Assembly: GCA_049692125.1 (NCBI GenBank)
Contig: JBAVOO010000057.1
Location: 2,421 to 66,420, forward strand
Direction of reading: 5' to 3'
Origin: Verrucomicrobiia bacterium
Lineage (GTDB): Bacteria; Verrucomicrobiota; Verrucomicrobiia; Limisphaerales; UBA11358
Length of the DNA: 64,000 nt
Shown here: positions 15,657-50,278 of the stretch, piece after piece
Layout: each line of letters starts with the position of its first letter
How positions within the stretch are numbered: the first letter of the stretch is position 1
The notes under the pieces: model-generated
What the model was told of the DNA's origin: nothing
What the model saw: only the letters and a program-made list of their open reading frames with translations
Databases searched by the model: none
Translations under genes and position numbers: made by a program

Positions 15657-17603
15657 TCACCCGGCATCAAAATTCCGGCCCGACCAGACCCACGCCAGCG
15701 CAACCAGTCCGGCCAATAAAACAAGCAATTCAACCAAGCCGTGGTTCGAAAAAAGAGTTTTTCCGATGATGCAGCGAACCACACCCCATCCGGAAAGCAA
15801 GACACCCAATCCCAGACCGGACAATAAAATGACGACCGCGTGGTTGAGCAGCAAAAGCGCGTAATAGGAAAGGCGTCCCCATTGGTTGATTTCGCCCACC
15901 GCCACCCAAATGTCATGATTTTGATTGGTGACTTCCAGGCGGAATGGGTTTTGGGGCGCCGACACCATGATCACCTGCCACCGCCCGGTGATTTCCGGGC
16001 GCAGTTCAATTCTGCGACCGGTGGATTGTTCCACCAACTGAAGGCTGACACCTTCCAGCCTGGGCCCGCAGCATAATTTCAGGCTCAGTTTTGGCAACGT
16101 GGCCCACAGTGGTTTGCTGACAAAATGCCCGGTCACGGCCACTCCGTTTGAGCAATTACCCCACACGGGCACGAATTCCTGCTCTGGTGTTCCGGGCGGG
16201 CAACCATTCAGAACCATTGAGGCATCGGACTTTTCGTCTCTTTCCAGTTTTAATGGCGGACGGCAGGCGGCAGGCATAATCCTCAACAGGTTGGGATCGC
16301 GCAGCAATTCCACCAACACACCGGCATCCGGATACGGAACCTCCCCAAACGGCTTGTCCAGCAAACAAGCCGGATTGTCCGTGGCCACAAATGCCCGCAC
16401 ATTTTGCTCCTCAATCCGGCCCATCCGTCGGCTGAATTGCATGTAATTTTCCGCCTGGCCGCCGCCCATCGTTGCCCAGGAGATCCGCCACATTCCCAAA
16501 AACAAACAACCTGCCCAGGCCATCGCCAGCAGACCCACCAACGGTCGTGACAGCCGGCGATATTCGGTATTCTCTCCCAGAATGAACAAACTGGCCAGAC
16601 TCGCGACGGAGAGGGTGCAGAGGGTGTCCATGTATCGGCTGCTGTTGCCCAAGTGTGCGCGTCCATAAGCCAGGGCCGCGGCCTGCAGGAAACCCCAAAA
16701 GCCAAGGGTTAGAACAAATTCAGCCGACCGGGGGTCTTTGAAGTCCGACTGGAAGTATTTGACGACCGTGATCATCAGTGGCAGACAAAGGACCGACAGC
16801 AAGGCTGGCTGATTAATGAATGGCCATGCCAGATTGCCCAGCAGCGCTTCCCCAAATGTCAAAAACCGTCCAGCTCGATAATGCCCGTGTTTTTGAATGG
16901 CAACATCCAGGATCAGGCCGGAAATAAAAACCGCCAGACTGCAACCGAGAGTAACCCATTGAACCTGAACGGCGCCCCGCTGCTTTAACCGGCGAAGGAC
17001 CAGCAACCCGATGACGGCCAGGGAAGCCAACAAACCGGATCCCATCGTAAAAAGAGACATCACCGCCGTTGCCAGCCCGCAAAACCACCAGCCGCCACTC
17101 GGTGAACCGAACCCCAGTCCGATGATCGTGACCACCGAAAAAATACCCAGAAAATACACCTGTGATTGGAACCCGTGGATCGTGTTCTCGGCCGCAAACG
17201 GAAGCGCGAAAAACGGCATGAGCAAAAAACAGATCAATCCCTCATGTTTTCGACCGGTAAAAATCCACAGGCCATACGCCAGTCCGCAGGCATAGCCAGT
17301 GTGAATGAACGCGTTGATGACCATCTGCAGGATGGGGTCCCACTGGTGGTTGAGCCACAACTCCATCACGTCCAGCGCGCGGGTGAAAAAAATCCGGTGC
17401 TCATTATGCGGTGCAAACCATGCGCCCCACGTCAAATGCCCCTCCAGCCAGGGTTTGAATAAAAGCTTTGCTTCGTCTCATTGATCCCAGTAGGGAACAG
17501 CCGTTCCGTACACCTGGATCACCCAAAGTTTGGCCCCCAGCACCACCAGCAACAACGCCGACAACCACGCCGCAAGCCGCCGGTTGAAATTGTTGGACTG
17601 CAC
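15657..17603 (-). pseudogene. large polytopic membrane protein (paralog 2) interrupted by in-frame TGA at 17478-17480
   Basis: Track ORF 15657..17435 starts mid-protein. Hand translation upstream in the same frame gives (V)QSNNFNRRLAAWLSALLLVVLGAKLWVIQVYGTAVPYWDQ*DEAKLLFKPWLEGHLTWGAWF. This aligns with paralog 1 across the stop. Confidence 0.65.
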
Positions 17604-17773: not shown

Positions 17774-18958
17774 ATGGACTTTGATTCAACAAGTTTTCCG
17801 CTGCGACCGGCGTGGGTTGAAATTGACCTCGCACGGCTGCGCCGCAATCTTCAACTAATCCGCCGCGACCTGCCGCGCCATGTGCAGTTGCTGGCGGTCG
17901 TGAAGGACGAGGCCTACGGACATGGCGCGCTCGACGTGGCGCGCATCGCGCTCGAAGAAGGCGCGTGGGGCTTCGGCCTCAGCACGTTGGAAGAGGCGGT
18001 GGCGCTCCGCGACGCCGGCATCGCCGCGCCGTTGCTGCTGCTGGGCGAACGGCAGGAAGCCGAATTACCGTGGTGCGTGGAACACAATCTGACCGTCTGC
18101 GTCAATGAACCTCATACCGTCCGCAAACTCGCCCACGCGGCCACACATGCCGGCAAGCGTGTGCCGGTGCATCTGAAAATTCACACCGGCATGAGCCGCT
18201 TCGGCGTGCGTTGGGACGAGGCGTTGCCGCTCATCGAACAGATTGGCGCCGAGAAATCGCTGTGGCTCGAAGGCGTGATGACGCACTTCGCGCAATCCGA
18301 CGAAACGGACAAAACGTTTGCCAACCTTCAGTTCTCCCGTTTCAACGAGGTCCTCCAGGGCATGGCCGCGCGCGGCATCTCCGTGAAGCTGCGCCATGCC
18401 TGCAACAGCGGCGGGTTCCTCGATCTGCCGCACGCGCATCTCGACATGGTCCGCGTCGGCATTTTGATGTATGGCATTTTCCCATCGTCGGTCTGCCGGC
18501 GGATTCCCGGAATCGAGCCGGTCATGTCCGTGAAAGCGCGCATTGCGGCAATCCAAAAATTGAAACCCGGCGAAGTGGTCGGTTACGGCATGCGTTACGC
18601 CGCGCCGTCGGAGCGGCGGATTGCCGTGCTGCCCATCGGTTACGGCGACGGTTTTCCGCGTGTGCGCAACCAGGGCGGCGCGCTCATCCGCGGCCGGCGC
18701 GCCCCGCTCGTCGGCGGCATCGCGATGGACGCGCTGATGGTGGACATCACGGACATCCCTGAAGCGCAGATGTGGGACGAAGCCGTCATCATGGGCCGCC
18801 AGGGCAACGAGGAAATCACCGTGCATGACATGGCGAAACTGAAAAACTCGGTGAGCTACGAAGTGCTCACCAGCTGGCGGTTGCGCCTGCGGAGAAAATC
18901 CGTGAACGCCAAAACCACGCCGGCGAAAATTGCGGTCGAAGCCGCTGTCGCAAAATGA
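17774..18958 (+). CDS. alr: alanine racemase
   Basis: AVVKDEAYGHG PLP-lysine motif, typical length and C-terminal domain. Confidence 0.9.
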   Translation: MDFDSTSFPLRPAWVEIDLARLRRNLQLIRRDLPRHVQLLAVVKDEAYGHGALDVARIALEEGAWGFGLSTLEEAVALRDAGIAAPLLLLGERQEAELPWCVEHNLTVCVNEPHTVRKLAHAATHAGKRVPVHLKIHTGMSRFGVRWDEALPLIEQIGAEKSLWLEGVMTHFAQSDETDKTFANLQFSRFNEVLQGMAARGISVKLRHACNSGGFLDLPHAHLDMVRVGILMYGIFPSSVCRRIPGIEPVMSVKARIAAIQKLKPGEVVGYGMRYAAPSERRIAVLPIGYGDGFPRVRNQGGALIRGRRAPLVGGIAMDALMVDITDIPEAQMWDEAVIMGRQGNEEITVHDMAKLKNSVSYEVLTSWRLRLRRKSVNAKTTPAKIAVEAAVAK

Positions 18959-19758
18959 AACTCCTTTTCTCCGAACAAAACTCCGATTACGAGCATTACC
19001 AGTTTCCCTACGCCATTTGGGCCGTGCCGGAGGCGGGCGAAACGCCGTCGGACATCTTCAACGCCGGCTTCCTGCCGTCGTCGCGCAACCTTGACCGCTT
19101 TTACCTCTGCCGCCAGGTGCGCGTGAACCTCGCGAAGTTCAAGCCATCATCCGAAAACCGCCGCATCCTCCGCAAAGGCGCAGACATTGAGGTGAAGCTC
19201 GTGCCGCGCGACAAATATAATTACACGCAGGAGCGCCGTGAATTTTTCAAGACCTACGCCGACATCAAATTCGGCAAGGACGTGATGACATTCGAGCGGC
19301 TCGACGCATTGTTCGCTTCGCCCATCATTTCGCATCTGCTCGTGTTCACGGACACGAAGACCGGCGCGGAAGTCGGCGTGGCGACCCTTTATCTCGAAGG
19401 CAAGGCGCTGGCGTTTTACTATTACGCGTTTTACGACCTGAATTATTACGCGCGCAATCTGGGCATGTTCATGATGACCTCGGCGGCAGCGCTGTTTGCC
19501 GAGCGCGGTTTCAAGCACCTCTACCTCGGCACGTGCTATTCGCAAACGGCGCTCTACAAAACCCAGTTTGCCGGCGCGGAATTTTTCAACGGCTTCCGCT
19601 GGTCGGGCGACCTGGACGAATTGAAATTCATCATCAAGCGCGACAAAAAGGACCTCACCCAGCACCTGCTGGAAACCGAGGAATACCGCAAAGAATTTTA
19701 CGACGGAGACCTCGAAAAAATCCGCGCGGCGAGTGAATTTCGGGTCAAGGTGAAGTAA
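18955..19758 (+). CDS. arginyl/leucyl-tRNA-protein transferase family (ATE/Bpt-like)
   Basis: HLYLGTCYSQTALYKTQFAGAEFF resembles the ATE_C signature (YLGY....KM.YK..F.P.E). Start overlaps the alr stop. Confidence 0.6.
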   Translation: MKLLFSEQNSDYEHYQFPYAIWAVPEAGETPSDIFNAGFLPSSRNLDRFYLCRQVRVNLAKFKPSSENRRILRKGADIEVKLVPRDKYNYTQERREFFKTYADIKFGKDVMTFERLDALFASPIISHLLVFTDTKTGAEVGVATLYLEGKALAFYYYAFYDLNYYARNLGMFMMTSAAALFAERGFKHLYLGTCYSQTALYKTQFAGAEFFNGFRWSGDLDELKFIIKRDKKDLTQHLLETEEYRKEFYDGDLEKIRAASEFRVKVK

Positions 19759-19933
19759 GAACCTGTCGCCGTTGGAGGCGGCCCCGAGCACTCGCGATGC
19801 CCCTGAAGGCCCGGCCTTGATCTGGCCAGGCACTACAGCGAATTATCTTTGATCTGGTTGTTCGAGCCTGATTTCCGACCGGTGCATCGGATCATTTCGT
19901 TTGGCGCCCCAAGAATTCCTGGCAGGGCTTTTA

Positions 19934-20362
19934 TTAAGACGAAGCAGCAACAGGCCTGGATCCGGGTTTGCCCGGCGCTTTTGAGGCCCCCGACAGCTGA
20001 CACAGCAACTTTTCCACTTTTGAGACAAGTTGTTCTGCATCGAACGGTTTTATGACATAATCGGTGGCACCAGACTCATACCCGACGAGCCGGCTGATAT
20101 GGCTGCATAAACCGGTCAACATGAGAACCGGGATGGAGGCTGTGGCGGGATTCCCCCGCAAGGTTTCGCAAACAGCGAACCCGTCCAATTCGGGCATCAT
20201 CACATCCAGCACAATCAAATCGGGTGACACCGTCTGGGCCTTTTTGAGCGCGTCAATGCCATTGGTGGCCGTGCCAATGGCAAAACCTGCATTTTTTAAA
20301 GTGAAGCGTATCACTTCAAGCTGATCCGGGTCATCCTCCACCACCAGTATTTTTTTTCGCAT
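19934..20362 (-). CDS. stand-alone response regulator receiver (REC) protein
   Basis: MRKKILVVEDDPDQ...DLIVLDVMMPELDG...LMLT...DYVIKPF, a canonical CheY-like receiver. Confidence 0.85.
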   Translation of the reverse strand: MRKKILVVEDDPDQLEVIRFTLKNAGFAIGTATNGIDALKKAQTVSPDLIVLDVMMPELDGFAVCETLRGNPATASIPVLMLTGLCSHISRLVGYESGATDYVIKPFDAEQLVSKVEKLLCQLSGASKAPGKPGSRPVAASS

Positions 20363-20640
20363 AGGAACTTGGTTAACATGTGCAAACACGTTCAACGCCG
20401 AAAACACCACGGTACGGTGCAAATAAACGCCGGTCGCGAATTAGCATGAATTATGCCATCAATGGCCCAAAAGTTGACACCGCGCGCTTCCTTGTTTCAG
20501 GGAATCCGGGAACCGCGACAAAACCACCGACGCGAGCGGGTTTCGGATGAAAGTGGATTGAAACGTTACAGCAAAGACCGCAGAACAGGTTCAAAAAGGG
20601 TTCCGGCGAATTCACGCAGATCGGAAGTTTGCCAGGAAAA

Positions 20641-21993
20641 TCAGCCCGATTTTTTGTTGCATGCGTCTTTTAGACGTCTAATCAAGTCGGCAGGAACGCG
20701 AAATATAAACTCCTTACCTCGTTTACCTTTCTCCAGGAAATTGTGGTCGGACAGCGTCAAAAGGTCTGCCCGTGCAGTCGCATAGACCACATTATGCCGG
20801 GCGCGGTGTTCTGTAACGGTGTAACGTTGTCCCGGATGTTTCAGTGCGTGAACGAGAATTGCCTGTTGACGATGGTTTAGCCAATCCAGACGGTCAATGA
20901 ATCCCCGGCTTTCTTCGACTTCGTGCGTTTTATGGTCGATATAATCATGCAGTTCTCTGATCGCTTTTCGGATGACTTCCACCTGCTGAATGAGAAAATA
21001 AGTCAAATCGTTCTCATCCGTTTCCGCATACAGAAATGCCATGCCGTACTGAACAGGGGCTTTGAGAATGATTTTTGAAATGGAAATGAATTCAAACAGC
21101 CAAAAATCATTCCTCAGCATCGCCCAATAAAACAAAGCCCGCGCGGTGCGTCCGTTTCCATCAACAAACGGATGATCATAAGCCAGCCAGAAGTGCAGGA
21201 TGATGGCTCGAATCACGGGATTGATAAAACAATCGGGAGTTTCTCCGTTGGCAAAACGGCACATGGCTTCAAGGCGCGCCGGCAATTCCGACGCGGGAGG
21301 CGGAACATGGAAAACGGCTCCCTCAATTTGATCCCCAACATCGACCAGTTCATCCGGCCTTCGCAACCGTCCGGCGGCGTCGGGTTTGTCGAGCGCCCCC
21401 GCGCCAATCATGCGTTGCAGTTCAATCACGATTTCAGGCGTGAGCGGCGTTCCGCGCAACTCCCGGATGCGTTGCATGGTCAGATAATTATTGAGAATCA
21501 TCTGCTCGCCCTTGTCGCGCGGTCTGCGGCCGCTGCTCAACATTTGCTTGGCCACTTCGCGGGTGGTCGCCGCTCCCTCTAGCTGGCTGGAAGTGATGGC
21601 CTCCTCAAACAGCGAGCGCATCAAATAACGGTCCCGCGTTTGCGGGTTTGTCACCGGTTCGGTTGAACCGACGATGGCGCCCGACTTCTGGGCGATATGA
21701 TGAAGCTGTTCCGCCACAGAATCAGGGATGCTGAATTCAAACGGCCTCCCTTGTTTGTCTTTGAGGGGAATTTTCCGCCTGCCCGACATCCGCCGAAGTT
21801 TCATGGCCAGCCACCATTCTTCAGAAGACAACCCCAGCGGCGGAGTCCGGTGGCGCAATTCATCCCAGTGGAGGTATTCGTGTTTTTTCGGCGGCGTCTC
21901 GGTGGAGGCTTTGATGACCGCTTCCAACCGATTATGCTTCATCCCGTTCTTCAACAATTCATCGAACGGCTTTGGCTTGGCCGGAATTTTCAT
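20641..21993 (-). CDS. Fic-family protein (AMPylase-type) with N-terminal inhibitory-helix motif
   Basis: HPFVDGNGRTARALFYW Fic motif. The upstream ITSSQLEGAATT fits the (S/T)xxxE(G/N) inhibitory motif. Extended C-terminal tail. Confidence 0.9.
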   Translation of the reverse strand: MKIPAKPKPFDELLKNGMKHNRLEAVIKASTETPPKKHEYLHWDELRHRTPPLGLSSEEWWLAMKLRRMSGRRKIPLKDKQGRPFEFSIPDSVAEQLHHIAQKSGAIVGSTEPVTNPQTRDRYLMRSLFEEAITSSQLEGAATTREVAKQMLSSGRRPRDKGEQMILNNYLTMQRIRELRGTPLTPEIVIELQRMIGAGALDKPDAAGRLRRPDELVDVGDQIEGAVFHVPPPASELPARLEAMCRFANGETPDCFINPVIRAIILHFWLAYDHPFVDGNGRTARALFYWAMLRNDFWLFEFISISKIILKAPVQYGMAFLYAETDENDLTYFLIQQVEVIRKAIRELHDYIDHKTHEVEESRGFIDRLDWLNHRQQAILVHALKHPGQRYTVTEHRARHNVVYATARADLLTLSDHNFLEKGKRGKEFIFRVPADLIRRLKDACNKKSG

Positions 21994-22016
21994 ATTTTTA
22001 ACATTAAAGTGCCGTT

Positions 22017-22111
22017 GTTATCAAAATATTATCAAAATCTATTAAATTGATAGATTAAAAATCCGCCACCGTCAACTATCAAATTGATTGATTTTGATAG
22101 TTAATTGATAG
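22017..22111. promoter_or_regulatory. array of six TATCAA(A)/TTGATAG boxes immediately upstream of fic
   Basis: TATCAAA at about 22019, 22030 and 22077. TTGATAG at about 22047, 22094 and 22105. Includes the palindrome ctatcaaa-N9-tttgatag. AT-rich. Confidence 0.5.
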
Positions 22112-22292
22112 TTCCGTCGCTGAGAATTCCAGGCATGGTCACGTCCTGCATCGACGCGAGCGCGCTGCACGGGTGTCGGGCCGCGGAGCAGGTCAAAAAG
22201 GGTTTGGACGGAGTCATGCGGGTCGGGAGTTTGCCGAACGAAGGCAATGAGGCAAGCGAGTTTCGGGTGAAGGTGAAGCGAAAATTTGCGAC

Positions 22293-22709
22293 TTAAATAT
22301 TTAAGGAACGAATCAGCTCTGTGCTCGCTTCAGAATCGAAAGCTTTGGCTTCTAGTATCATTTGATACATGGAATTGATAAATTGTTCCGCTGCGGTTGC
22401 ATACAAAACGATAGCTATGTCTTTTTTCCCTTTTCTCCAAAAATTTACAGCCTCATTCAAAAACTCTTCGTCGATTGTCCAACATACTTTCATTTTCTGA
22501 ATGGCTTCGTGTTCGTGTTCCAAAATAAGACGGACCCATGTCTCTGGATTTTTGAGATGTTCTTCTTTGAGAATTTTCTGGCGAGCCAAAATCAAAAATA
22601 CGTTTGGAATTGCAAAATTGACAAGAGCTTTAGCTAAAGATTTTGGAATATGAACTTTCGTCGGAGATTTCATGTTGCTCACCAAACCACTTTCCAAAAT
22701 TCCCATCAA
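22293..22709 (-). CDS. hypothetical protein (AT-rich, no recognised family)
   Basis: 138-aa ORF kept open in AT-rich DNA. Same orientation as fic and the REC gene. Confidence 0.4.
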   Translation of the reverse strand: MMGILESGLVSNMKSPTKVHIPKSLAKALVNFAIPNVFLILARQKILKEEHLKNPETWVRLILEHEHEAIQKMKVCWTIDEEFLNEAVNFWRKGKKDIAIVLYATAAEQFINSMYQMILEAKAFDSEASTELIRSLNI

Positions 22710-27606: not shown

Positions 27607-27736
27607 CCGCGGGAGTTTCCGCGCCGGGACGATGCGTGGCAAGTTTTTGCGTTTGGAATCCGGCCTTCACGCGGCAAAAAAACAAGGCCGCTCGGACCGT
27701 CCCGCCGGGCGGGACGGAACTCCAAACAACCGTGCT

Positions 27737-28808: not shown

Positions 28809-30185
28809 ATGAAAAAAATCTCTCCCATTTCCCGCAGCGGGCGGTTCGCGCATGAGGTGAGCGCGGACGTCGCGCAATTCACCGAATCCATCTCCTTCGA
28901 CCGCCGACTCTGGCGGCACGACATCCTCGGCTCGCTCGCGCACGTCAAAATGCTCCAGAAAATCGGCGTGCTGACCAAAAAGGAATTGCGCACCATCATC
29001 CGTGGCCTGAACCAAATCGCCAAGGAAATCGCCGCCGGCAAATTCAAGTGGAAACCTGAACTCGAAGACGTTCACATGAATATCGAGGCCGCGTTGACGA
29101 GACGCGTCCCAGCGGGGGCAAAACTGCACACCGCCCGCTCCCGCAATGACCAAGTTGCTCTCGACCTGCGCCTCTGGCTGCGCGACGAAATCGTAATTTT
29201 GCTTGGGGGAATCGCCGATTTGCAGCGCGCGTTGGTTTCGCTTGGCGAGAAAAACGCCGATGTCCTAATACCTGGCTACACGCATCTCCAACGTGCCCAG
29301 CCCGTTTATCTCGCGCACCATCTGCTCGCTTACGTCGAGATGCTGGAGCGCGACTGTGAACGTCTTTGGGACTGCCACTCGCGCGTAAACGTCTGCCCGC
29401 TCGGCAGTGGCGCGCTTGCCGGCTCGACTCGGCAGTTGGATCGCGAACTCGTTGCCAAAACGCTCGGCTTCGTGGACACGAGCGGCAAACCGCGCGTTTC
29501 ACAAAATTCCATGGACGCCGTCAGCGACCGCGATTTCGCCGTCGAATTTTGCGCCGCCGCCGCGTTGCTCGCCGTTCACATTTCGCGGCTCGCGGAGGAT
29601 TTGATTTTCTGGGCCAGCGCGGAATTCGATTTCATCAAAATTGCCGATGCCTACACCACCGGCTCATCAATGATGCCACAAAAGAAGAACCCGGACGTGG
29701 CGGAACTCGCGCGCGGCAAATCGGGCCGGGTCATTGGCAACCTCGTCGCGTTGCTCACGCTGTTGAAAGGGTTGCCGATGACCTACAACCGCGATTTGCA
29801 GGAGGACAAGGAACGGCTCTTCGACACCGCCGATACCATGCACGCGACTGTGCGTATCGTCGCCGCGATGCTACGGAATACGAAAGTAAATCGCGCCAAA
29901 TGCGCCAAAGCTGCGAATGACTCAGCGTTACTGGCAACCGACCTCGCGGATTATCATTCCCAGCAGTCGCTTGCCCCCCGCACAGAAGCAATTTTGCACG
30001 AACTTTTATATGCCGACCAGTATGCCAAGTATTCTGATCCGGCTACAGGAGAAATGAAACAGCCTATCAAATTACCGAGCGAAGCTGAAGAGGATGATTT
30101 GCTGCGTCGTTTCTATCAAATCCAAGCCTCTCGTGAAAAATCAAAGATGACTGCAACGTCTTCAAAAGCAAAAAAAAATATCTAA
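28809..30185 (+). pseudogene. argH: argininosuccinate lyase, first 381 codons fused to an unrelated AT-rich 77-codon tail
   Basis: Canonical ArgH up to ...ALLATDLAD (SRNDQV, GYTHLQRAQP, GSSMMPQKKNPD). After codon 381 the sequence (YHSQQSLAPRTEAILHELL...) no longer resembles ArgH. Confidence 0.85.
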
Positions 30186-30487
30186 AAAGCTAGGAAACAG
30201 AAGCTGTTCAGAAAGATTATCGTTTTGGGCAAGAAAAAGAATAGCGGCTAGAGGATTTTCCGCCATCTTGCCAATTGCTTCGCTACTTCCTTTGTTCCCG
30301 GTGCGCCAATCAAATTCCGCCGCGTCATCGCACGTTGCAAATCGAAAACGCCAGGCGTATCGCGGCCAAATTTTTCGTTTACGGATACCCATTCCTCGCG
30401 CGACAGTTTGTTGAGCTGCTTGCGCGATTTTTCGGCCAACGCCACGGCTGCACCGACTGCATGATGCGCCTGCCGGAAAGTCCCTTT
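29952..30487. other. 536-bp segment apparently inverted relative to ancestral order, bounded by imperfect 12-bp inverted repeat GAYCTYGCGGAT
   Basis: gacctcgcggat at 29940-29951 and atccgcaagatc at 30488-30499. The base composition switches at both junctions. Confidence 0.7.
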
Positions 30488-30760
30488 ATCCGCAAGATCT
30501 CGATTAACGCAGATATAGAATGCACGGATGGGATACTCGCGAAAACTCCCATCTGGGTGACGGACTTTCTTTTTTTCACCTTTCTTCCATCGAGGAAAAA
30601 TAACAGTTGGTTTTGATCTAAAAAGTGGAATGTATCGCTGGAAACTAAATTCCAAAATTATAGGCTGTAAGTAAAATCCCCTCTGTAAGGAACAAAGTGA
30701 CTGTGGCATGACCTTGCGATAAACAGTCAAGCCATTAGATTTTTTCTTGCCAACCACCAC
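30248..30760 (-). pseudogene. argH: chimeric ORF: AT-rich 91-codon 5' part fused to the ArgH C-terminal 79 codons (30251-30487)
   Basis: C-terminal ...DLADKGTFRQAHHAVGAAVALAEKSRKQLNKLSREEW...NLIGAPGTKEVAKQLARWRKIL matches the ArgH C-terminal consensus (LAD...KG.PFR.AHH.VG), on the opposite strand from the argH 5' part. Confidence 0.8.
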
Positions 30761-30800
30761 GGCTCTTAAAACTAGAGATTAATGACTCCCTGCAAAGAAG

Positions 30801-31163
30801 TCATATTGTTATTTTGGTCTTCTCTGGTAAGGGAGCGGGGCAACATTTAAGCAGCACTGAAAGCGGATCAAATTTCTTCATGCACTTTTTCAAATCCGCA
30901 GGCTTTGAAATTTCAGCTTGATAGTCCCGTTCAATGGCGGCAATTGGCCCTCCAAAGACTCTCCTCGCATCAGCCATAAAATCAGCCTTATAAATTTGCT
31001 GATTGGCTATACAATGCATAGCCACAATCCCGTATTTGTTTTTTGGAACGGGATGCGTGCAGTTTTGGTTTTTTTTCACTATAATGGGCCAATTTCTAAT
31101 TGGCCTTATGCCGGTTTCTTTTCTTTTGTTCGTTTTCGATGCCAATGCTCTCACACAATTCAA
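30801..31163 (-). CDS. hypothetical protein (AT-rich island)
   Basis: 120-aa ORF open in AT-rich DNA. No family recognised. Confidence 0.35.
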   Translation of the reverse strand: MNCVRALASKTNKRKETGIRPIRNWPIIVKKNQNCTHPVPKNKYGIVAMHCIANQQIYKADFMADARRVFGGPIAAIERDYQAEISKPADLKKCMKKFDPLSVLLKCCPAPLPEKTKITI

Positions 31164-31399
31164 ACGTTAAATCGTGCTAAACTCAATAGCATAAATTACG
31201 CCGAATCATGAAAAGAGCAAAACTGGCTTCTATTCAAACAAACCTTTAAAAAACTGTCAACCATTTTTGTCCACATTTTATTCACATTTTGACACAGTTT
31301 GCAACTCGGATTTACACATGGTCGTCCCTGTCCGCAAGCTTTTTTGACAGCATAATCCAATGCTGGCATTTATTGACTATTCCGTGTTTCATTTCCCCA

Positions 31400-31525
31400 A
31401 TGGCATCCGAACCAAAAGAATTGTTGGGTGATTTGCTCAAGGCGACGTCGCGCTCGTTTTATCTGATCCCGCTTTGCGGGACATGGCTGCCGGCGGCGGT
31501 GCATCCGCAAATCGGCCTTGCGTGA
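31400..31525 (+). pseudogene. remnant copy A of the 5' end of the squalene-synthase-like gene
   Basis: MASEPKELLGDLLKATSRSFYL...PQIGLA* parallels MAGTTNDLLRDTSRSFYLTLRVLPAAVRPQIGLAYLL of the intact gene. Nucleotide repeat about 31430-31522. Confidence 0.65.
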
Positions 31526-31529
31526 TTAG

Positions 31530-31871
31530 ATGAAATTGCCCAATGCAAACAAAGCCATTGTCGAGCGCGACAAAATCCTGGTTTATCTGCTGAACCCGGA
31601 ACATCGGATCGGCGCGAGCAAGGCGCAATTTTTCACCAAGTTCGGTTTCAGCGCGGAGAAATGGGAACAACTGGCCAAGGCGTTGCTGGTTCATGGCCAA
31701 ACACATGACGTGAAGCGGATGCATGAGACGGATTTTGGCCCGCGTTACGAAGTTGAAGGCGCATTGAAAACGCCCGACGGTCGCGAGCCGATTATTCGTT
31801 CGGTCTGGCAATGGGATAAAGGCACAGTTGCGCCAAGATTGATAACAGCCTATCCTTTGGAGGCGAGATGA
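31530..31871 (+). CDS. DUF6883-like protein
   Basis: ILVYLLNPEHRIGASKAQFFTKFGF...DGREPIIRSVWQWDKG...PRLITAYP matches my recollection of DUF6883. Overlaps the next ORF by 4 nt. Confidence 0.6.
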   Translation: MKLPNANKAIVERDKILVYLLNPEHRIGASKAQFFTKFGFSAEKWEQLAKALLVHGQTHDVKRMHETDFGPRYEVEGALKTPDGREPIIRSVWQWDKGTVAPRLITAYPLEAR

Positions 31872-32101
31872 AGATCAAAGAACATGATTGCGTGGTGTTG
31901 ACGCGTGACCTGCCGGATGAAGATTTGAAGGCTGGTGACGTGGGCACGGTGGTCCACATTCATAAGGGCGGCGTGGCTTACGAAGTGGAATTTGTCACGC
32001 TCACGGGCAAAACCATCGCTGTTGCCACGGTGGAAGCTTCCCATTTGCGTCCGGTTGGTCAACGTGACATCAACCATGTCCGCGAGTTGGCCATCGCATA
32101 G
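31868..32101 (+). CDS. DUF4926-like protein
   Basis: MKIKEHDCVVLTRDLPDEDLKAGDVGTVVHIHKGGVAYEVEFVTLTGKTIAV is a typical DUF4926 pattern. Confidence 0.6.
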   Translation: MKIKEHDCVVLTRDLPDEDLKAGDVGTVVHIHKGGVAYEVEFVTLTGKTIAVATVEASHLRPVGQRDINHVRELAIA

Positions 32102-32202
32102 CTTCGATTTGCTCAAGGCGAGGTCGCGCTCGTTTTATCTGACGTTGGCGTGCTGCCCGCCGCCGCGCGCCGCAATTCGGCCTCGCCTACCTGCTCGCGT
32201 AG
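32088..32202 (+). pseudogene. remnant copy B of the 5' end of the squalene-synthase-like gene (frameshifted)
   Basis: gatttgctcaaggcgaggtcgcgctcgttttatctgacgttggcgtgctgcccgccgcc...cggcctcgcctacctgctcgcg is near-identical to 32667-32762, with a 1-nt indel and a stop. Confidence 0.65.
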
Positions 32203-32223
32203 TCGTGAAAAATGCTTTAAGAT

Positions 32224-32517
32224 TCAGACTGTGGCGAGCTTTGCCTTTTTGCGCCAGGCGCGCTCGGCAAATTTGCGGGCTTCCTTCGCGCCGCGCAGCA
32301 GGCAGTCGGAACTGATGTCGCAATCGAGCTTCGGCCAATAGACCGAGGTGTGGCAAATCTCAAAATCGGCGCGCTCACGCCGCGTGGCGAGTTGCAGCGT
32401 GGGATAAAACGACAGCGGCACGCTCACCGTTCGCCCATCTTCCAAGCCTAATGTCAGCCGTTCGTCGGTGATTTGCACCGAGGTCACGTCCGGCGGCGGA
32501 TGGTTATTCAGTTTCAT
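32224..32517 (-). CDS. DUF2442-like protein
   Basis: VTSVQITDERLTLGLEDGRTVSVPLSFYPTLQLATRRERADFEICHTSVYWPKLDCDISSDCLL is a typical DUF2442 pattern. Confidence 0.6.
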   Translation of the reverse strand: MKLNNHPPPDVTSVQITDERLTLGLEDGRTVSVPLSFYPTLQLATRRERADFEICHTSVYWPKLDCDISSDCLLRGAKEARKFAERAWRKKAKLATV

Positions 32518-32648
32518 TCCATGCCTCGATCAATCTCGCTTCGCTAGATATGATTACGTCTGCGCTGGAAGGTTGGCAAGGCGCCAACCCAAGATTTCGT
32601 GACTTTAGCTGGCGCGAATGGCAGGAAGATTTATTCTTGGCGAAACAA

Positions 32649-33668
32649 ATGGCCGGGACAACAAACGATTTGCTCCGCGACACGTCGCGCTCGTTTTATC
32701 TGACGTTGCGCGTGCTGCCGGCTGCCGTGCGCCCGCAAATCGGCCTCGCCTATCTGCTCGCACGCACCACCGACACCATCGCCGATACCGAACTCGTTCC
32801 CGTCGAACAACGGCTTGACGCGCTCAAAAGGTTGCGCGAACGGATTTTGGGCTCGTCCACCGCGCCGCTGAATTTCAGTGAACTGGCGAAACATCAAGGT
32901 TCGCCCGCCGAAGCTGCCTTGCTGGAAAAAGTCGAGGACAGCCTCACGCTGCTGCAAACCCTTTCGCCCGCCGACCAGCAACTGGTCCGCACCGTCCTCA
33001 ACACCATCACGGGCGGACAGGAACTGGACCTGCGCCGGTTCGCCGGCGCGTCCGCCGGAAAAATTGTCGCGCTGGAAACCGCCGACCAGCTCGACGATTA
33101 CACCTGGCGCGTCGCCGGCTGCGTCGGCGAATTCTGGACGAAGATGTGCCGGGCGCATCTGTTTCCGAAGGTGCGGCTGGACGACGCGCAACTGCTGGCG
33201 GATGGCGTCCGGTTTGGCAAAGGATTGCAACTGGTGAACATCCTGCGCGATTTGCCGGCGGATTTAAAAAAGGGCCGCTGCTATCTGCCCGCGGACAAGC
33301 TGGAGCAGGCGGGATTGATTCCGGCGGTTTTGCTGTCGCCGGTGAACGAGGTGAAATTCCGTCCACTATTTCACGAATATCTCGACCGCGTCGAATCGCA
33401 CCTGGCCGCGGGCTGGGCCTATACGAACACGCTGCCGTTCGGCCAGGTCCGCGTGCGGCTGGCCTGCGCGTGGCCGATTTTGATTGGCATGAAAACGATT
33501 GAAAGACTGCGCGCCGGCAGCGTGCTTGACCTGCAGCAGGGCGTCAAAATTTCCCGGGCCGAAGTGCGCGGGATTTTGCTGCGTTCAACACTGGCTTACC
33601 CGCTGCCGGAGGTGTGGCGAAAATTGTTTTCCACGACTGGAAAAGCTGTTGCATCCGGTGAGAAATAG
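32649..33668 (+). CDS. squalene/phytoene synthase family protein (HpnC/HpnD-like)
   Basis: SRSFYLTLRVLP, YTWRVAGCVGEF and NILRDLPADLKKGRCYLP motifs of the SQS_PSY family. Start at MAGTTNDLL. Confidence 0.8.
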   Translation: MAGTTNDLLRDTSRSFYLTLRVLPAAVRPQIGLAYLLARTTDTIADTELVPVEQRLDALKRLRERILGSSTAPLNFSELAKHQGSPAEAALLEKVEDSLTLLQTLSPADQQLVRTVLNTITGGQELDLRRFAGASAGKIVALETADQLDDYTWRVAGCVGEFWTKMCRAHLFPKVRLDDAQLLADGVRFGKGLQLVNILRDLPADLKKGRCYLPADKLEQAGLIPAVLLSPVNEVKFRPLFHEYLDRVESHLAAGWAYTNTLPFGQVRVRLACAWPILIGMKTIERLRAGSVLDLQQGVKISRAEVRGILLRSTLAYPLPEVWRKLFSTTGKAVASGEK

Positions 33669-33683
33669 GCGTAGAAAAACGTC

Positions 33684-34733
33684 ATGCAAATTCCCAAGTT
33701 GTTGCCCACGGTTTGCGCGGCGGTTTTCTGTGCGAGTTTCATTTCCGTCCGCGCGGACGACACTCCGGTTCAGGCCGCCGCGCGCGGGGCTTTGGAACAA
33801 AAGATGAGCGAATTGGATACGCAACAAACCCAAGCGCCGCCATTTGTCGTCCTGCCTTCCGGCGCCGTGGAGGTGCAACCAAGCCGGCCCATAACCAATA
33901 CCGTCCCCGCACAAACACCAAAACCGGCGGCCACGGCAACAACGCCCAAGCCAACCCCGATGCCCGCTGCGCCCGTTGCGCCTGAACCAAAAAGTCCGCT
34001 GGCAGAGCTTACACCCGCCACATCGCCGCCAGCCGAAACCAAGCTGGCACCGATGACGACTCCGGTCGAACCGGCTACAGCAGCGACAACCACTTTGGAA
34101 ACCAACGCTGCCCCGGCGGCTTCCGGAACGACGCCCGCTGCGCCCGTTGCGCCTGAGCCAAAAAGTCCGCCGGCAGAGCTTGCACCCGCCACTCCGCCGC
34201 CGCAAGTTGAGCCGGAGGCCCCGGCCGCCGCCACTCCAGCCGCTCCGACAACTTCTGAATCAACAACGACGGGCACAAAAGCAGTTCAACCAACCGCGAC
34301 AACTCCCGCACCGGCGGAAACCCAACCCTCGGCCCCGGCCCCGGAAACGATGCCTGCGCCCGGCGCGGAAGCGGCTCAACCCGCGACAAACACAGTTGCC
34401 CCAACCCCCGCGCCGCCCATCTCTCCGGTACCCGCTCCTGTCGCAACGCAGCCGGCGGTTCCTGCAATCACACCCGCGCCGGGCACAGTTCCTCAAAGTC
34501 CCGCGATGCCCGCCACGATAAAAGTCAAACCCGGCGTGATGAGCGCAACGAACCAGATCAACGCAATTTATACAGGAAAAGAACTGGGCTTGAAGCCAAT
34601 TGAATCGCCGCTACTGCCGGTTTCCGCAGCCCAACAGGCGCAACTGCAAGCCTTGCTCGCAAAATACAAGGCCAACCAGATCACGCCGGAGGAGTACCAC
34701 AAACAGCGCGCGGAAATCCTGGCCCAGCCATAA
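33684..34733 (+). CDS. secreted Pro/Ala/Thr-rich protein with SHOCT-like C-terminus
   Basis: Signal peptide, low-complexity PAPT repeats including a duplicated PAAPVAPEPKSP.AEL.PAT.PP unit, C-terminal LLAKYKANQITPEEYHKQRAEIL. Confidence 0.6.
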   Translation: MQIPKLLPTVCAAVFCASFISVRADDTPVQAAARGALEQKMSELDTQQTQAPPFVVLPSGAVEVQPSRPITNTVPAQTPKPAATATTPKPTPMPAAPVAPEPKSPLAELTPATSPPAETKLAPMTTPVEPATAATTTLETNAAPAASGTTPAAPVAPEPKSPPAELAPATPPPQVEPEAPAAATPAAPTTSESTTTGTKAVQPTATTPAPAETQPSAPAPETMPAPGAEAAQPATNTVAPTPAPPISPVPAPVATQPAVPAITPAPGTVPQSPAMPATIKVKPGVMSATNQINAIYTGKELGLKPIESPLLPVSAAQQAQLQALLAKYKANQITPEEYHKQRAEILAQP

Positions 34734-46322: not shown

Positions 46323-46978
46323 ATCTTTTCAAAAACATCCAAAACCGGGCGCGTCGGAGAAACGTCCGCGGGTTCACACTGGTGGAAATGGTGGTCACGG
46401 TTTGGGTCTTCCTGTTTGTCTTCACCGGCGTGATGGTCGCCGTTCAAATTTTCGGGTTGCGCATTTATACGGTGGCGGCAACCAAGCTGGTGGCCACCAC
46501 CGGTGGCCGCCAGGCGCTGAATCAAATCCGGGACCAAATCCGGGAGGGGAAAATGGTTTATGTCGGGAACTGTTCCGCTCCCCTCTACTCTTCCTTCACG
46601 CTCATTGGGACGACAAACTCGCAGCAGGGCAACGCGCTGATAATTTATCCCACCACGAACACGGGCTGGTGCTCGATTTACTATCTGGACACCAGCACCA
46701 CGACCAATCGCTTGCTGCAATTTAACGTGTCCAATAACGTCACCACCTACACCAACACCCTGGCCAAGTATCTTACCAACCAAATCGTTTTCGATGCCAG
46801 GGACTGGAAGAACACCATTCTGACGAACGACCAAAGTTTGGATAATCGTTTGCTCATAGAAGTGACAATGCAATTTTCGCAATGGGAATACCCCATCGCT
46901 TTTGTTGGCGGGGTTGGTCTCAACGCTTACGATTATTATCAACTGCGCACGCGGGTCTTCCGTCGCGAGTGGAACTGA
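46319..46978 (+). CDS. prepilin-type N-terminal cleavage/methylation domain protein (pseudopilin)
   Basis: RGFTLVEMVVTVWVFLFVF motif. Start overlaps the upstream stop. Confidence 0.75.
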   Translation: MNLFKNIQNRARRRNVRGFTLVEMVVTVWVFLFVFTGVMVAVQIFGLRIYTVAATKLVATTGGRQALNQIRDQIREGKMVYVGNCSAPLYSSFTLIGTTNSQQGNALIIYPTTNTGWCSIYYLDTSTTTNRLLQFNVSNNVTTYTNTLAKYLTNQIVFDARDWKNTILTNDQSLDNRLLIEVTMQFSQWEYPIAFVGGVGLNAYDYYQLRTRVFRREWN

Positions 46979-46995
46979 AAGCACAAAGGAGGTTT

Positions 46996-49053
46996 ATGCA
47001 AACTTTATCCAGACTCATACGGCGGAACCGCCGGGGTTACGCGTTGATCATCATCATGTGTTTTTTGGGCGCCTGTCTGGTCGTCTTTGCCAGCATGATG
47101 TATTTGATCACCAGCAATGCCCGCGTGACCGCGCGGAACAACCAGTTCAACATGAGTGAATCCGCCGCGGAAGCCGCCACCGAAAAGGTCCTTGCCCAAA
47201 TGAATTACGACTTCGTCGCCCAAAGTCTCTCGAACAGCGGGGCCTATTACGGCAGCATGATTCCCACTACGAACATAAATCAGCAGCCGCACTGGCCCAT
47301 CAACGATCAGGCGAGCTGGCCCGTCCAATATGCCTATACCGCCACCAACGGCAACCCGAACCAGATCAGCGTCTGGATGGGTCCATGGACCACCAACACG
47401 GTGCCTCTGAACTCGCAATACACGAATTTGTATGGTTTGGTGCAGCCTTGCACCATCACCGCTACCGCCACGCCGATCTCCACCAACGTGTCTTACGCCG
47501 TGCCGGCCACCGTCAGCGAGTCAATTCAATTCGCCTCCATCCCCCTCTTTCAATTCGCCATATTCTATAATATGAATCTGGAAATTGCCGCCGCCCAGAC
47601 TTTGAACATCGTTGGTCCAGTGTGGTCCAATGCCGGCCTTTGGTCGGGGTCAACCACCGTCACCTTCGCAAATACGGTTTCCGCCGTCGGAATAGCCACC
47701 AATGGCGCCAGTGATCCTTTTTGCACCGGTTATACCGGCAGCGGCAAATCCACTTACTCAATGGCAGGCCAGCCGACCTCCGGCAACGATCATATAACCA
47801 TGCCGATCGGCACCAACAATAATCCTGCCGCCGTCGAAGCGATCATCAACCTTCCGCCTTCCGCCTATGCCATGAACTCGGCGGCGGCCTTTACGACCAA
47901 CGGCCAGATTTATCTCGCCAACGCCGCCGATCTCTACCTCACCAACTTTCCCAACGGCACCAATTGGGGCACGCTCAGGCCCAATTGCACCAACACTGTG
48001 TATTTTCAGAGTAATGCATGCATGATTCTGTATTATCAGGATGCGAATTCAGCAGGAGCACCCCCCTATCTGACCCAGATACCGTATGATTTTTACCTTT
48101 TGAAGACTAATTACGGCGGCAACGTCGCCACCTATTTCACCAACTATGTCGTCACAAATGGATTTTATGGCAGCCTAAACACTAACCATTTTAATTGTTT
48201 TTCGAACGTCCAATACGCCGGCTATTCGTTTTTGACGAATGTTCTCTTCTACGACTGGCGCGAAGGTTGGAATGGAGCCTCCGGCCCGCCGAAGGCGGTT
48301 CAAGCCGTCCAGATTGACATCACAAAATTCAACATTTGGCTCACCAACAGTGCGGCCACCAATAACGGAATCTCCTACAACACCCAATGCGACTTACCCA
48401 GTCACAAATCCCATCCGATTGACTCCATTTACGTTTATAACGCCGTTCCTTTGACCGGCACGACCCTCCCGGCCGTGCGCCTCGTCAACGGAAGCATATT
48501 GCCGTCGCAAACAGCACCCTACGGCTTCACCGTCGCCACGGCGATGGCGTTGTATGTGTGGGGCAACTACAACGCGTCAAACACCTCCGGCTCGTCTCTC
48601 GGCCAAAACAGCACCACCTACACCTGGCCTGCCGGGCTGATGGGCGACGCCATTACCATTCTTTCAACCAGTTGGAATGATACCAACAGCACTGCTGCCA
48701 AAATATCAACTGATACCAGTGGCGGTCCGTCAGCCGGCTCAGGCTCAACCACCGTTAACGCAGCAATCCTCGCAGGCATTGTCCAATCAACCAACTCAAA
48801 CTATAGCGGCGGGGTGGAAAATTTTCTCCGTACGCTGGAGAATTGGAGCAGTGCCACCTTGTGGTATAACGGCTCCATTGTGGTCATGTTCCCCAGCCAA
48901 TATGCGACAAATTCCTGGCAGCAAACCGGCAACTATTACACCGCACCCAACCGCAAGTGGGCTTTCGACACGAATTTTGAGGCGCAAGTCGGGCTGCCGC
49001 CAATGACGCCGCAAGCCAAGGGTGTCATCCGCGCCAACTGGCTTGATTACTAA
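46996..49053 (+). CDS. large (685 aa) membrane-anchored, Asn/Thr/Tyr-rich pilus/secretion-associated protein (PilX/GspK-like N-terminus)
   Basis: RRGYALIIIMCFLGACLVVFASMMYLITSNARVTARN resembles a PilX_N/GspK N-terminus. The remainder is beta-rich low complexity. Confidence 0.55.
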   Translation: MQTLSRLIRRNRRGYALIIIMCFLGACLVVFASMMYLITSNARVTARNNQFNMSESAAEAATEKVLAQMNYDFVAQSLSNSGAYYGSMIPTTNINQQPHWPINDQASWPVQYAYTATNGNPNQISVWMGPWTTNTVPLNSQYTNLYGLVQPCTITATATPISTNVSYAVPATVSESIQFASIPLFQFAIFYNMNLEIAAAQTLNIVGPVWSNAGLWSGSTTVTFANTVSAVGIATNGASDPFCTGYTGSGKSTYSMAGQPTSGNDHITMPIGTNNNPAAVEAIINLPPSAYAMNSAAAFTTNGQIYLANAADLYLTNFPNGTNWGTLRPNCTNTVYFQSNACMILYYQDANSAGAPPYLTQIPYDFYLLKTNYGGNVATYFTNYVVTNGFYGSLNTNHFNCFSNVQYAGYSFLTNVLFYDWREGWNGASGPPKAVQAVQIDITKFNIWLTNSAATNNGISYNTQCDLPSHKSHPIDSIYVYNAVPLTGTTLPAVRLVNGSILPSQTAPYGFTVATAMALYVWGNYNASNTSGSSLGQNSTTYTWPAGLMGDAITILSTSWNDTNSTAAKISTDTSGGPSAGSGSTTVNAAILAGIVQSTNSNYSGGVENFLRTLENWSSATLWYNGSIVVMFPSQYATNSWQQTGNYYTAPNRKWAFDTNFEAQVGLPPMTPQAKGVIRANWLDY

Positions 49054-49066
49054 TGTATAATGTAAA

Positions 49067-50278
49067 ATGAAAACGACGCAAACTTTGAAGATTGCCTGTC
49101 TGCTGTGTGTGATGGCGCTGCAAGCGGCCACCAGCGGAGGTCAAACCGTGACCAAGGTTGCCGCCGGAGGCTACTTCAGCCTGTTTCTCAAGAGCGATGG
49201 CAGTCTGTGGGCCATGGGCGATAACAGCTATGGCGAGTTGGGCGACGGCACTTACAACCAGGCCGACCTGCCCGAACAAATTGTGGCCAGCAACATCACG
49301 GCGATTGCCGGGGGAGGCTACTATAGCCTGTTTCTCCAAAGCGATGGCAGTCTGTGGGCCATGGGCGACAACGGCGCTGGCCAGTTGGGCGACGGCACTT
49401 ACAACCAGACCAATCTGCCCGAGCAGATTGTGGCCAGCAACGTCACGGCGATTGCCGCCGGATATAAACACAGTCTGTTTCTCAAGAGCAACGGCAGTCT
49501 GTGGGCCATGGGCTACAATGCCTCTGGCCAGTTGGGCGACGGCACTGACAACAACACCAACCGACCCAAGCAGATTGTGGCCAGCAACGTCACGGCGATT
49601 GCCGCCGGATATAAACACAGTCTGTTTCTCAAGAGCGACGGCAGCCTGTGGGCCATGGGCTACAATGCCTCTGGCCAGTTGGGCGACGGCACTTACAACC
49701 AGACCAACCGGCCCGAGCAGATTGTGGCCAGCAATGTCACGGCGATTGCCGCCGGATACAACCACAGCCTGTTTCTCAAGAGCGACGGCAGCCTGTGGGC
49801 CATGGGCGACAACGACGCCGGCGAGTTGGGCGACGGCACTTACAATCAGGCCACCCTGCCCGAGCAGATTGTGGCCACCAACGTCACGGCGATTGCCGGA
49901 GGAAGCGACCACAGCCTGTTTCTCCAAAGCGACGGCAGCCTGTGGGCCATGGGCGACAACAGCTATGGCCAGTTGGGCGACGGCACCACTGATAACGACA
50001 ACTACAACACCAACCTTCCCGAACAGATTGTGGGCGGTCCAAGCGTGCCCCCGGGCTACAATCAAATCTCCGGCCAGCTTTTGGGGACGGGCGACATGCA
50101 GTTGTCCTTTGTGGGCGTCGCCGTAGCGAATTACGCGCTGGATCGTTCCTTCAGCCTGACATCGCCCAACTGGGTGCCGCAGTTGACCAATTCCACCGAC
50201 GCGGGCGGGGTGCTGGTGTTCACCAACACGCCCGATCCAACCACCACCGATTTCTGGCGCATCCGCTCCGTGCCCTAG
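49067..50278 (+). CDS. secreted RCC1-repeat (beta-propeller) protein
   Basis: Signal peptide plus about six tandem units of HSLFLKSDGSLWAMG.N..GQLGDGT. Confidence 0.8.
   Translation: MKTTQTLKIACLLCVMALQAATSGGQTVTKVAAGGYFSLFLKSDGSLWAMGDNSYGELGDGTYNQADLPEQIVASNITAIAGGGYYSLFLQSDGSLWAMGDNGAGQLGDGTYNQTNLPEQIVASNVTAIAAGYKHSLFLKSNGSLWAMGYNASGQLGDGTDNNTNRPKQIVASNVTAIAAGYKHSLFLKSDGSLWAMGYNASGQLGDGTYNQTNRPEQIVASNVTAIAAGYNHSLFLKSDGSLWAMGDNDAGELGDGTYNQATLPEQIVATNVTAIAGGSDHSLFLQSDGSLWAMGDNSYGQLGDGTTDNDNYNTNLPEQIVGGPSVPPGYNQISGQLLGTGDMQLSFVGVAVANYALDRSFSLTSPNWVPQLTNSTDAGGVLVFTNTPDPTTTDFWRIRSVP

Follow-up and report, generated by a model that had tools for sequence, protein, structure and literature searches.

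The stretch analysed here (the window) is 64,000 nt of contig JBAVOO010000057.1 (assembly GCA_049692125.1), from a verrucomicrobial bacterium of the order Limisphaerales. It carries three direct copies (A, B, and C) of the first ~95 nt of conserved coding sequence of sqs, a gene of the squalene/phytoene-synthase family that follows argH. Two small gene cassettes lie between the copies. Cassettes have been inserted serially in the 5′ end of sqs and have spread horizontally; each supplied the live gene with a new start, the old starts were kept upstream, and no recombinase was found in cis in ~170 related loci. In our preferred reading, which stands at about an even chance, the argH-sqs junction serves this clade of Limisphaerales as a hot spot at which small integrase-less cassettes are inserted and moved by host homologous recombination. 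From comparison of related loci, we infer that the exchanges would occur inside the conserved ~100-nt segment at the start of the gene.

Copy C is the beginning of the live, hpnC/D-like sqs (Table 1). The start of this gene is more likely ATG 32649 than ATG 32550, as homologues use the 32649-type start. A 20-mer, GTCGCGCTCGTTTTATCTGA, is identical in A, B, and C and occurs nowhere else in the 64 kb; no match arose in 100 shuffles. Against a profile of 169 sqs 5′ ends, A scored E = 8e-13 and B scored E = 2e-17. The three copies had been proposed in an earlier sequence-only reading of this DNA, and they were recovered at essentially the same positions, significantly similar by both shuffle and profile tests. 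The ATG and premature stop assigned to copy A were also correct; the TGA falls 4 nt ahead of the DUF6883 ATG. Copy B had been described as nearly identical to the live gene with one 1-nt indel; it is in fact 86% identical to C and was inactivated by two 1-nt deletions, with a TAG at 32200 in the ancestral frame. Its ATG falls within the terminal (3′) part of DUF4926, in a different frame. The window has flanking direct repeats of a gene end, one truncated and one complete, with the gene regenerated by the sequence of the element.

Table 1. Features of the argH-sqs hot spot and of related sites (positions are those of the window unless a locus is named).
Feature	Position	Strand	Remarks
Copy A, leader open reading frame (ORF)	31400-31525	+	MASEPKELLGDLLKATSRSFYL...GLA and stop; 41 codons, ATG 31400, TGA 31523-31525
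Copy A, repeat segment	31430-31522	+	Lies within the leader ORF
Perfect hairpin, 15 nt	31467-31481	+	TCCCGCTTTGCGGGA; net in-frame +9-nt change right after the core ...TTTTATCTGA
Cassette 1	31526-32105	+	DUF6883 and DUF4926; replacement sqs start (ATG 32076) at right end
DUF6883 gene	31530-31871	+	Pfam E = 7e-36
DUF4926 gene	31868-32101	+	Pfam E = 5e-23
Copy B, repeat segment	32106-32199	+	Whole displaced start 32076-32202, MSASWPSHSFDLLKA...
Cassette 2	32203-32543	-	Short 3′ flank, DUF2442, DUF4160 remnant
DUF2442 gene	32224-32517	-	Pfam E = 3e-15
DUF4160 remnant	32504-32543	-	Last 12 codons; partner gene mostly deleted
5′ leader before live sqs	32544-32648	+	Accompanies the DUF2442 cassette
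Live sqs, hpnC/D-like	32649-33668	+	Pfam SQS_PSY E = 5e-51
Copy C, repeat segment	32667-32762	+	Within live sqs
Split argH, left border of hot spot	28809-30760		N part 28809-30185 (+); ASL_C2 in ORF 30248-30760 (-)
Displaced argH 3′ copy, L012	8929-9023		
Displaced argH 3′ copy, L013	8429-8532		
Displaced argH 3′ copy, L015	4978-5071		
Displaced argH 3′ copy, L172	1378-1512		
Second, mirrored site	18955-22296	+	3′ end of gene 18955-19758 recurs twice downstream: last ~35 codons with stop at ~22180-22296, in part at ~20575-20633
Response regulator between these copies	19934-20422	-	
Fic/DOC gene between these copies	20641-21993	-	Low GC

Chance similarity, or an assembly artefact of strain mixing, is so improbable an origin of this array as to be negligible. 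The same 20-mer occurs three times where none is expected, the profile E-values are significant, and related arrays occur in many species. Exact-protein look-ups found an identical layout in independent ENA, NCBI metagenome-assembled genome (MAG) and Logan assemblies, and the related contig L185 follows the window collinearly, with 99.97% identity. The three-copy array is real and no assembly artefact, although one related contig, L184, gives the artefact some colour. Between 3950 and 5002, L184 is identical to the window until the DUF4160 deletion point and continues with another lineage's intact DUF4160 and an unrelated Zincin_1 gene. It is probably a chimeric contig, or else a recombinant at the DUF2442/DUF4160 boundary, and was dropped as an alternative arrangement. 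The repeat itself is sqs coding sequence. Folding of the single strands of A, B, and C, in both orientations, gave z-scores of -0.35 to -1.56, none of them significant, ruling out an attC-like structure. Synonymous-codon entropy is modestly reduced in codons 1-37 (0.54 vs 0.66 elsewhere in sqs), which suggests no strong element beyond coding constraint, and an Rfam search of positions 29900-33000 returned no families.

Relatives, from a group of uncultured Verrucomicrobia of soil and peat, were surveyed for the argH-sqs order at 160 loci (80 species genomes and 80 metagenome contigs). All are MAGs or metagenome contigs, the MFD bins having frameshifts typical of long-read error, and contigs were examined with 6-10 kb flanks. 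The order argH-then-sqs is widely conserved among them. The empty site, argH followed directly by sqs, was sought and found in many species: there, 4-9 nt separate the stop of argH from the ATG of sqs, in what is probably the ancestral, operon-like arrangement. In the clade around the window, 0.6-2.8 kb of variable DNA fills the gap. Here both one-cassette states exist, and the window combines them. Cassette 1 alone is present in L011, in the order argH, DUF4062, A-like fragment, DUF6883/DUF4926, and live sqs; the start of that live gene, MSASWPSRNFDLLKA, is the one preserved in copy B. Cassette 1 is lacking in L100, which has the low-GC island of the window, a class-2 A-type fragment that carries the hairpin and extends to ~+105, the DUF2442 cassette with the same DUF4160 deletion as the window, and live sqs. 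The empty site, L011, and L100 together bear out the proposal of recurrent insertion at a single spot in the 5′ end of sqs, with the start regenerated and the old one left upstream every time. The related claim that older copies are pushed upstream holds in that old 5′ ends do remain there; the corollary that the most upstream copy is always the oldest is not upheld, as cassette 1 may, judging from L100, have entered an already displaced fragment.

The content of the cassettes was as first described: Pfam agrees that the A-B interval holds a coupled DUF6883/DUF4926 pair, whose stop and start overlap by 4 nt (ATGA), and that the B-C interval holds DUF2442 on the opposite strand. Cassette 1 recurs in L011 at 91% identity and also in L130. 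The DUF4160/DUF2442 pair is intact at the same place in L016, L059, L093, L118, and L172. Over 10 lineages the DUF2442 cassette shows 91.5% ± 2.2% DNA identity, whereas the rest of their sqs shows 74.7% ± 11.8%. A cassette identity so far above that of sqs indicates horizontal spread into the same site. The conserved block of this cassette has its left end precisely at the stop codon of DUF2442, in each of three left-hand contexts that are unrelated. Homologues of at least 86% identity are again directly upstream of sqs; a 77% homologue pair was found at another locus. The leader in front of live sqs is, from ~32600 onward, also present in some cassette-free relatives.

At the level of annotation, both DUF6883/DUF4926 and DUF4160/DUF2442 may be toxin-antitoxin-like pairs; PADLOC gave no match. 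Other cargo of the hot spot includes a TIR_2 protein (PADLOC PDC-S66, ThsB-like), a KAP NTPase (PDC-S20, E = 4e-95), a HEPN-like Hypoth_Ymh protein, DUF4062, PIN/antitoxin pairs, and a GIY-YIG (T5orf172) protein with homing-endonuclease-associated repeats. Cargo size is 0.5-2 kb, and cassettes occur in both orientations. A search of plasmid and phage collections with the cassette region gave no match, and the sqs core was absent from viral contigs. In L020 (83-808), and also in L148, L149, and L151, a GIY-YIG (T5orf172/MUG113) gene is located between argH and a displaced sqs start; a free-standing homing nuclease at the hot spot could stimulate recombination.

The starts of the live genes carry a record of the cargo. 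Among sqs homologues 78-92% identical to the window protein, discrete start classes precede an invariant TSRSFYLTLRVLP, and these classes track the upstream cargo. With an IS200-like Y1 transposase upstream, the live gene begins MQMPxxLT or MPKxLN (9 of 10 loci); with DUF4926 it begins MSASW..., its ATG inside the DUF4926 3′ end. VapC (PIN) is followed by (M/V)NSDLNNLL, or by MPVNFALN in L133 (L112/L115, L129, and L133), and DUF2442/DUF4160 by MAGTxNDLL and the shared 5′ leader (10 lineages). In P0071/L011 and P0047, live sqs begins MSA(S/N)W(P/Q)SRNFDLLKA and matches the class of copy B. The 16-residue start of copy A, MxxxxKELLGDLLKA, resembles that of empty-site species and recurs in the near relatives P0013-P0026 and in L014 (argH-sqs gap of 217 nt), which makes copy A most likely the original, native start of the window lineage. 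A target-site duplication by staggered cut was rejected as the source of the copies: B is closer to sqs of other genomes (91-93% identity) than to C (86%), and displaced argH fragments (described below) differ in sequence from the live 3′ end of their own genome.

Displaced sqs 5′ fragments were detected by profile search in ~17 further loci, all of them in the orientation of sqs and ahead of the live gene; an additional 51-nt fragment in L016 was spotted by eye. The cargo beside such fragments includes VapBC, IS200/RAYT-like genes, and TIR and KAP genes of a defence-like kind. They define ~12 junction types, none past ~+105 of the conserved segment and six at ~+97 to +105. The motif CGTGA(A/T) is common to the junctions of B, L118, L100, A, L011, L112, L133, and L130. 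For four cargo types, a given cargo keeps its junction beside differing resident starts: DUF6883/DUF4926 (class-2 start of copy A vs the MPxALN start of L011), DUF2442 (class-4 start of copy B vs class-2-like starts of L118 and L100), VapBC (L112 vs L133), and REP2/RAYT2 (L020, L110, and L131 vs L096). Change-point and correlation analyses showed that nt 106-220 track the host gene (r = 0.91) and that the first ~105 nt vary too little for assignment; tracking of the host gene by nt 106-220 fits both homologous-recombination and site-specific models.

These junctions bear on the view that the arrays are one-off scars of illegitimate (homology-facilitated) events or of transformation merodiploids, later inherited vertically or moved by ordinary long-flank recombination without a mobile system. 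Junctions are indeed specific to each cargo type and differ between types, and transformation is known to give one-anchor insertions and merodiploids. Scars would be hard to reconcile, however, with the same cassette and junction beside different starts, with the same cassette in lineages whose sqs is 58-94% identical, with both single-cassette intermediates, or with the confinement of 12 junction types to the first ~105 nt of the conserved segment in a ~1,020-nt gene (p ~1e-11 if uniform). We consider this explanation unlikely. The homologous-recombination model, for its part, accounts for a cargo and its junction beside different resident starts, for both one-cassette intermediates, and for cassette 1 landing in a displaced fragment.

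The hairpin in copy A serves as an internal marker of exchange. After the core ...TTTTATCTGA it is seen solely in displaced fragments (also in L011, L024, L096, L100, L106, and L133) and never in live sqs. It is combined with two resident-start classes and six junction types, and three cargo types have versions with and without it. As the change is complex, we infer that it arose once and was then reassorted by exchanges on both its sides. Such reassortment fits homologous recombination, which accounts for it, rather than one fixed crossover. The hairpin motif TCCCGCNNNGCGGGA is present at 27700, 31467, 51832, and 62700 of the window (4 matches vs 0.5 expected), in 22 related loci, and in the 5′ leaders of some displaced fragments (L011 and L131); it resembles a mobile hairpin of REP-like or terminator-like type.

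Hairpins of this kind could suggest an HUH (IS200/RAYT) system, in which Y1 transposases nick REP-like hairpins and mobilise adjacent DNA, pieces of the sqs 5′ end included. Y1_Tnp (IS200-like; Pfam E = 4.7e-24) is the commonest cargo, found at 10 loci, and REP-like hairpins occur at many junctions and within displaced fragments. Y1_Tnp is missing from the window array, however, and no Y1 gene is present at the site in many other array-bearing loci; the toxin-antitoxin cassettes are without recognisable terminal hairpins. Moreover, IS200/IS605-type transposition produces no duplication, and duplication is the hallmark of these arrays. A role of this kind is very unlikely.

In-frame stops occur at the junctions (TGA in A, L011, and L100; TAG in B; TAA in the REP2 type), and in A, L011, L112, and L133 the leader ORF stops 4-5 nt before the cargo ATG. 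With fragments often in frame and stopping at, or a few nucleotides before, the cargo start, the old sqs promoter and start site are probably reused to drive cargo expression.

No integrase, resolvase, or DDE transposase was detected at the sqs site in ~170 loci, the ~17 with displaced fragments included; possible exceptions are a putative IS630-like ORF, recognised by eye, and the Y1 genes carried as cargo. Within the window, Pfam tables (~2.5-19, 22.5-43, and 42-64 kb) and scans of the main gap ORFs revealed no recombinase, in agreement with the sequence-only reading, which saw no integrase there. An intI gene next to attI was not found in the window or in the checked loci of relatives. The search for a cognate recombinase near related sites was likewise negative at sqs: the only integrase near the sqs site in the surveyed loci, that of L169, abuts a partial tRNA gene and belongs to that att site.

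Integration into the 5′ end of a protein gene is itself established, and to call it non-standard, as had been done, was an overstatement. Elements in dusA (IMEVchUSA3) and prfC (the SXT/R391 integrative and conjugative elements) insert in the 5′ coding region by means of an integrase and supply a promoter and ~35 codons; the gene stays functional, and its former 5′ end is found at the opposite junction (PMC8409611). The sqs cassettes resemble them in 5′-coding insertion, a new start from the element, and an old start left behind. The dusA/prfC elements, however, are 10-100 kb in size and have their own integrase and excision factor and one short crossover core, whereas the sqs cassettes are 0.5-2 kb, have no recombinase at the site in ~170 loci, and appear to have variable exchange points. 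In tycheposons, successive integrations at the same site push older elements inward and leave partial target copies scattered (bioRxiv 10.1101/2020.12.28.424599). Tandem accretion is shared with the sqs arrays; the target there is a tRNA gene served by tyrosine recombinases, rather than the start of a protein gene.

By analogy, sqs ~+100 might be the attB of a tyrosine or serine recombinase, with the cassettes as trans-mobilised satellites or as remnants of integrase-bearing islands whose toxin-antitoxin genes resisted loss. We regard this as possible but somewhat doubtful. It would explain the clustering of junctions at ~+97 to +105 with the common CGTGA(A/T), and the sharp left end of the DUF2442 cassette in its three contexts. 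The new promoter and ~35 N-terminal codons brought by dusA/prfC elements, and accretion with partial att copies in tycheposons, are known precedents. Against it stand the lack of an integrase at the site in any of the ~170 loci, the small cargo, and the reassortment of the hairpin with the sequences on either side of it in the repeat; viral contigs are devoid of the sqs core, the cassette DNA is unmatched in phage and plasmid collections, and duplications at three gene ends would demand three specificities. The suggestion that the sqs gene end behaves as an att site fared poorly on similar grounds, namely the missing recombinase, the variable fragment ends, and apparent exchanges on both sides of the hairpin.

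Two of these gene ends lie outside sqs. At the other border of the hot spot, L012, L013, L015, and L172 have a displaced copy of the argH end (95-135 nt, stop included) downstream of inserted cassettes (Table 1); the cassette is a PIN/antitoxin pair in the first three. These argH copies are the 3′-end equivalent of the displaced sqs starts. A second, mirrored site was found in the window by eye and repeat search. Here the end of gene 18955-19758, which has a weak ATE_C match, recurs twice downstream, with response-regulator and Fic/DOC genes between the copies; in L173 the response-regulator/Fic block is missing after the alanine racemase gene. A tblastn scan of the window for duplicated gene ends recovered the sqs case only. 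Duplications of ~100 nt at three gene ends (sqs, argH, and gene 18955-19758) point to a general rather than an sqs-specific mechanism, and homologous recombination accounts for this pattern.

At the left border of the hot spot, argH of the window is split. Its N part is a 458-aa ORF made of the lyase core and a foreign low-GC tail, and its C part a 170-aa minus-strand ORF with a foreign low-GC N-terminus and the ASL_C2 domain. The split resembles a reciprocal inversion at DLAD codons, with junctions at 29941-29952 and 30489-30500. It is conserved in L100/L101 and L150, where the chimeric ORFs are intact and collinear and sqs is 75-89% identical; the region shares ~84% nucleotide identity with L150 over 2.9 kb. 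Intact chimeric ORFs in lineages so far apart indicate that the split is old and maintained, neither an artefact nor a fresh inversion. The reconstructed, un-inverted low-GC foreign ORF gave no Pfam family. In L014 (5860-8594) a tandem duplication of ~1.36 kb comprises the gene upstream of argH and the first 234 nt of argH.

With host homologous recombination, a dedicated recombinase would be unneeded. As the anatomy of the loci shows, a cassette consists of cargo and its own replacement sqs start. Once it is in place, the promoter and ATG of the resident gene, with its first ~32-41 codons, persist on the upstream side as a truncated leader ORF, and the start supplied by the cassette serves the live gene; repeated insertion yields arrays such as A-cassette 1-B-cassette 2-C. 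Cassettes could enter, leave, and reshuffle via recombination in the ~100-nt 5′ segment that they carry as a direct repeat. A cassette between a displaced fragment and the live gene would loop out as a circle with one hybrid repeat, and the circle could re-enter any copy of the segment by a Campbell-type single crossover. In an alternative route to a naive genome, a linear donor would recombine by double crossover, the displaced fragment and the live gene acting as the two arms.

Campbell-type insertion-duplication is known from laboratory gene targeting and from occasional plasmid integration. It relies on host homologous recombination and gives a truncated copy, the insert, and a complete copy; for the last to keep its function, the gene end must be part of the cloned fragment. 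In form, this product and the sqs arrays are identical. To our knowledge, such insertion has not been recognised as a natural, recurrent route to chromosomal cassette arrays.

Several points weigh against homologous recombination as the sole agent. Pure homologous recombination predicts no preferred boundary, and the ~12 junction types fall within the first ~105 nt, with the cluster of six and the shared motif described above; a common ancestral arm or a site-specific step is needed. That step could be provided by a recombinase in trans or by an ancestral integrase-borne element, and the integrase-dependent elements of dusA and prfC swap a similar ~35 codons (PMC8409611). As only contigs with 6-10 kb flanks were examined, a recombinase gene could lie farther away in the genome. 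Cassettes in circular or excised form were not observed, and the conserved segment is too invariant for crossovers to be mapped directly. The capacity of these uncultured bacteria for host recombination and competence is presumed.

Other systems offer partial parallels. The minimal mobile elements of Neisseria are described as alternative cassettes without mobility genes that are exchanged between conserved genes by homologous recombination (PMC3787668, PMC1797815). Their arms are different flanking genes and their cassettes replace each other, whereas both arms of the sqs cassettes come from one gene end and the cassettes add and stack. Integron arrays, attC clusters that lack an integrase among them, are similar in their small, often toxin-antitoxin cassettes, a repeated boundary, and a resident promoter that may express the first cassette. 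Unlike integrons, the sqs arrays have no intI, their boundary is housekeeping coding sequence with no significant fold, and cassettes are found in both orientations. What may be distinct here is the combination of tiny integrase-less cassettes, arms from the same gene, stacking, variable exchange points, and possible reuse of the leader ORF.

Some further features of the window were recorded. The gene after sqs (33684-34733) encodes a proline/alanine/threonine-rich product with an internal 171-nt repeat (73 nt at 92%); among relatives the product is 349-526 aa long. At least five tandem copies of a 147-nt unit, 76-84% identical, are located inside a long ORF at 49147-50034. Two adjacent minus-strand paralogues (13818-15575 and 15657-17435) have ~63% identical N-termini, and no Pfam family is assigned to them in relatives. 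A record look-up for the ORF at 46882-49053 found none.

Many hot spots of defence and toxin-antitoxin genes lie between conserved genes without a mobility gene, and how their cargo arrives is a question. The argH-sqs locus is a readable example, with empty, both one-cassette, and two-cassette states, ~12 junction types, and an internal marker of exchange. Tentatively, as a proposal that we hold to be less than probable, the cassettes could be recombinase-free and self-propagating: with a ~100-nt gene-end arm and a replacement start or stop, they would be added, stacked, excised, and swapped by host recombination at several gene ends across species, the start left behind would express the cargo, and islands could generally grow by this integrase-less route. 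For annotation, short "pseudogene" fragments of gene starts or ends beside small accessory genes can mark such sites, and the true start codon of the live gene may be cassette-encoded. If the reading is true, a duplicated gene end used as a recombination arm would be a simple, general mechanism of island growth.

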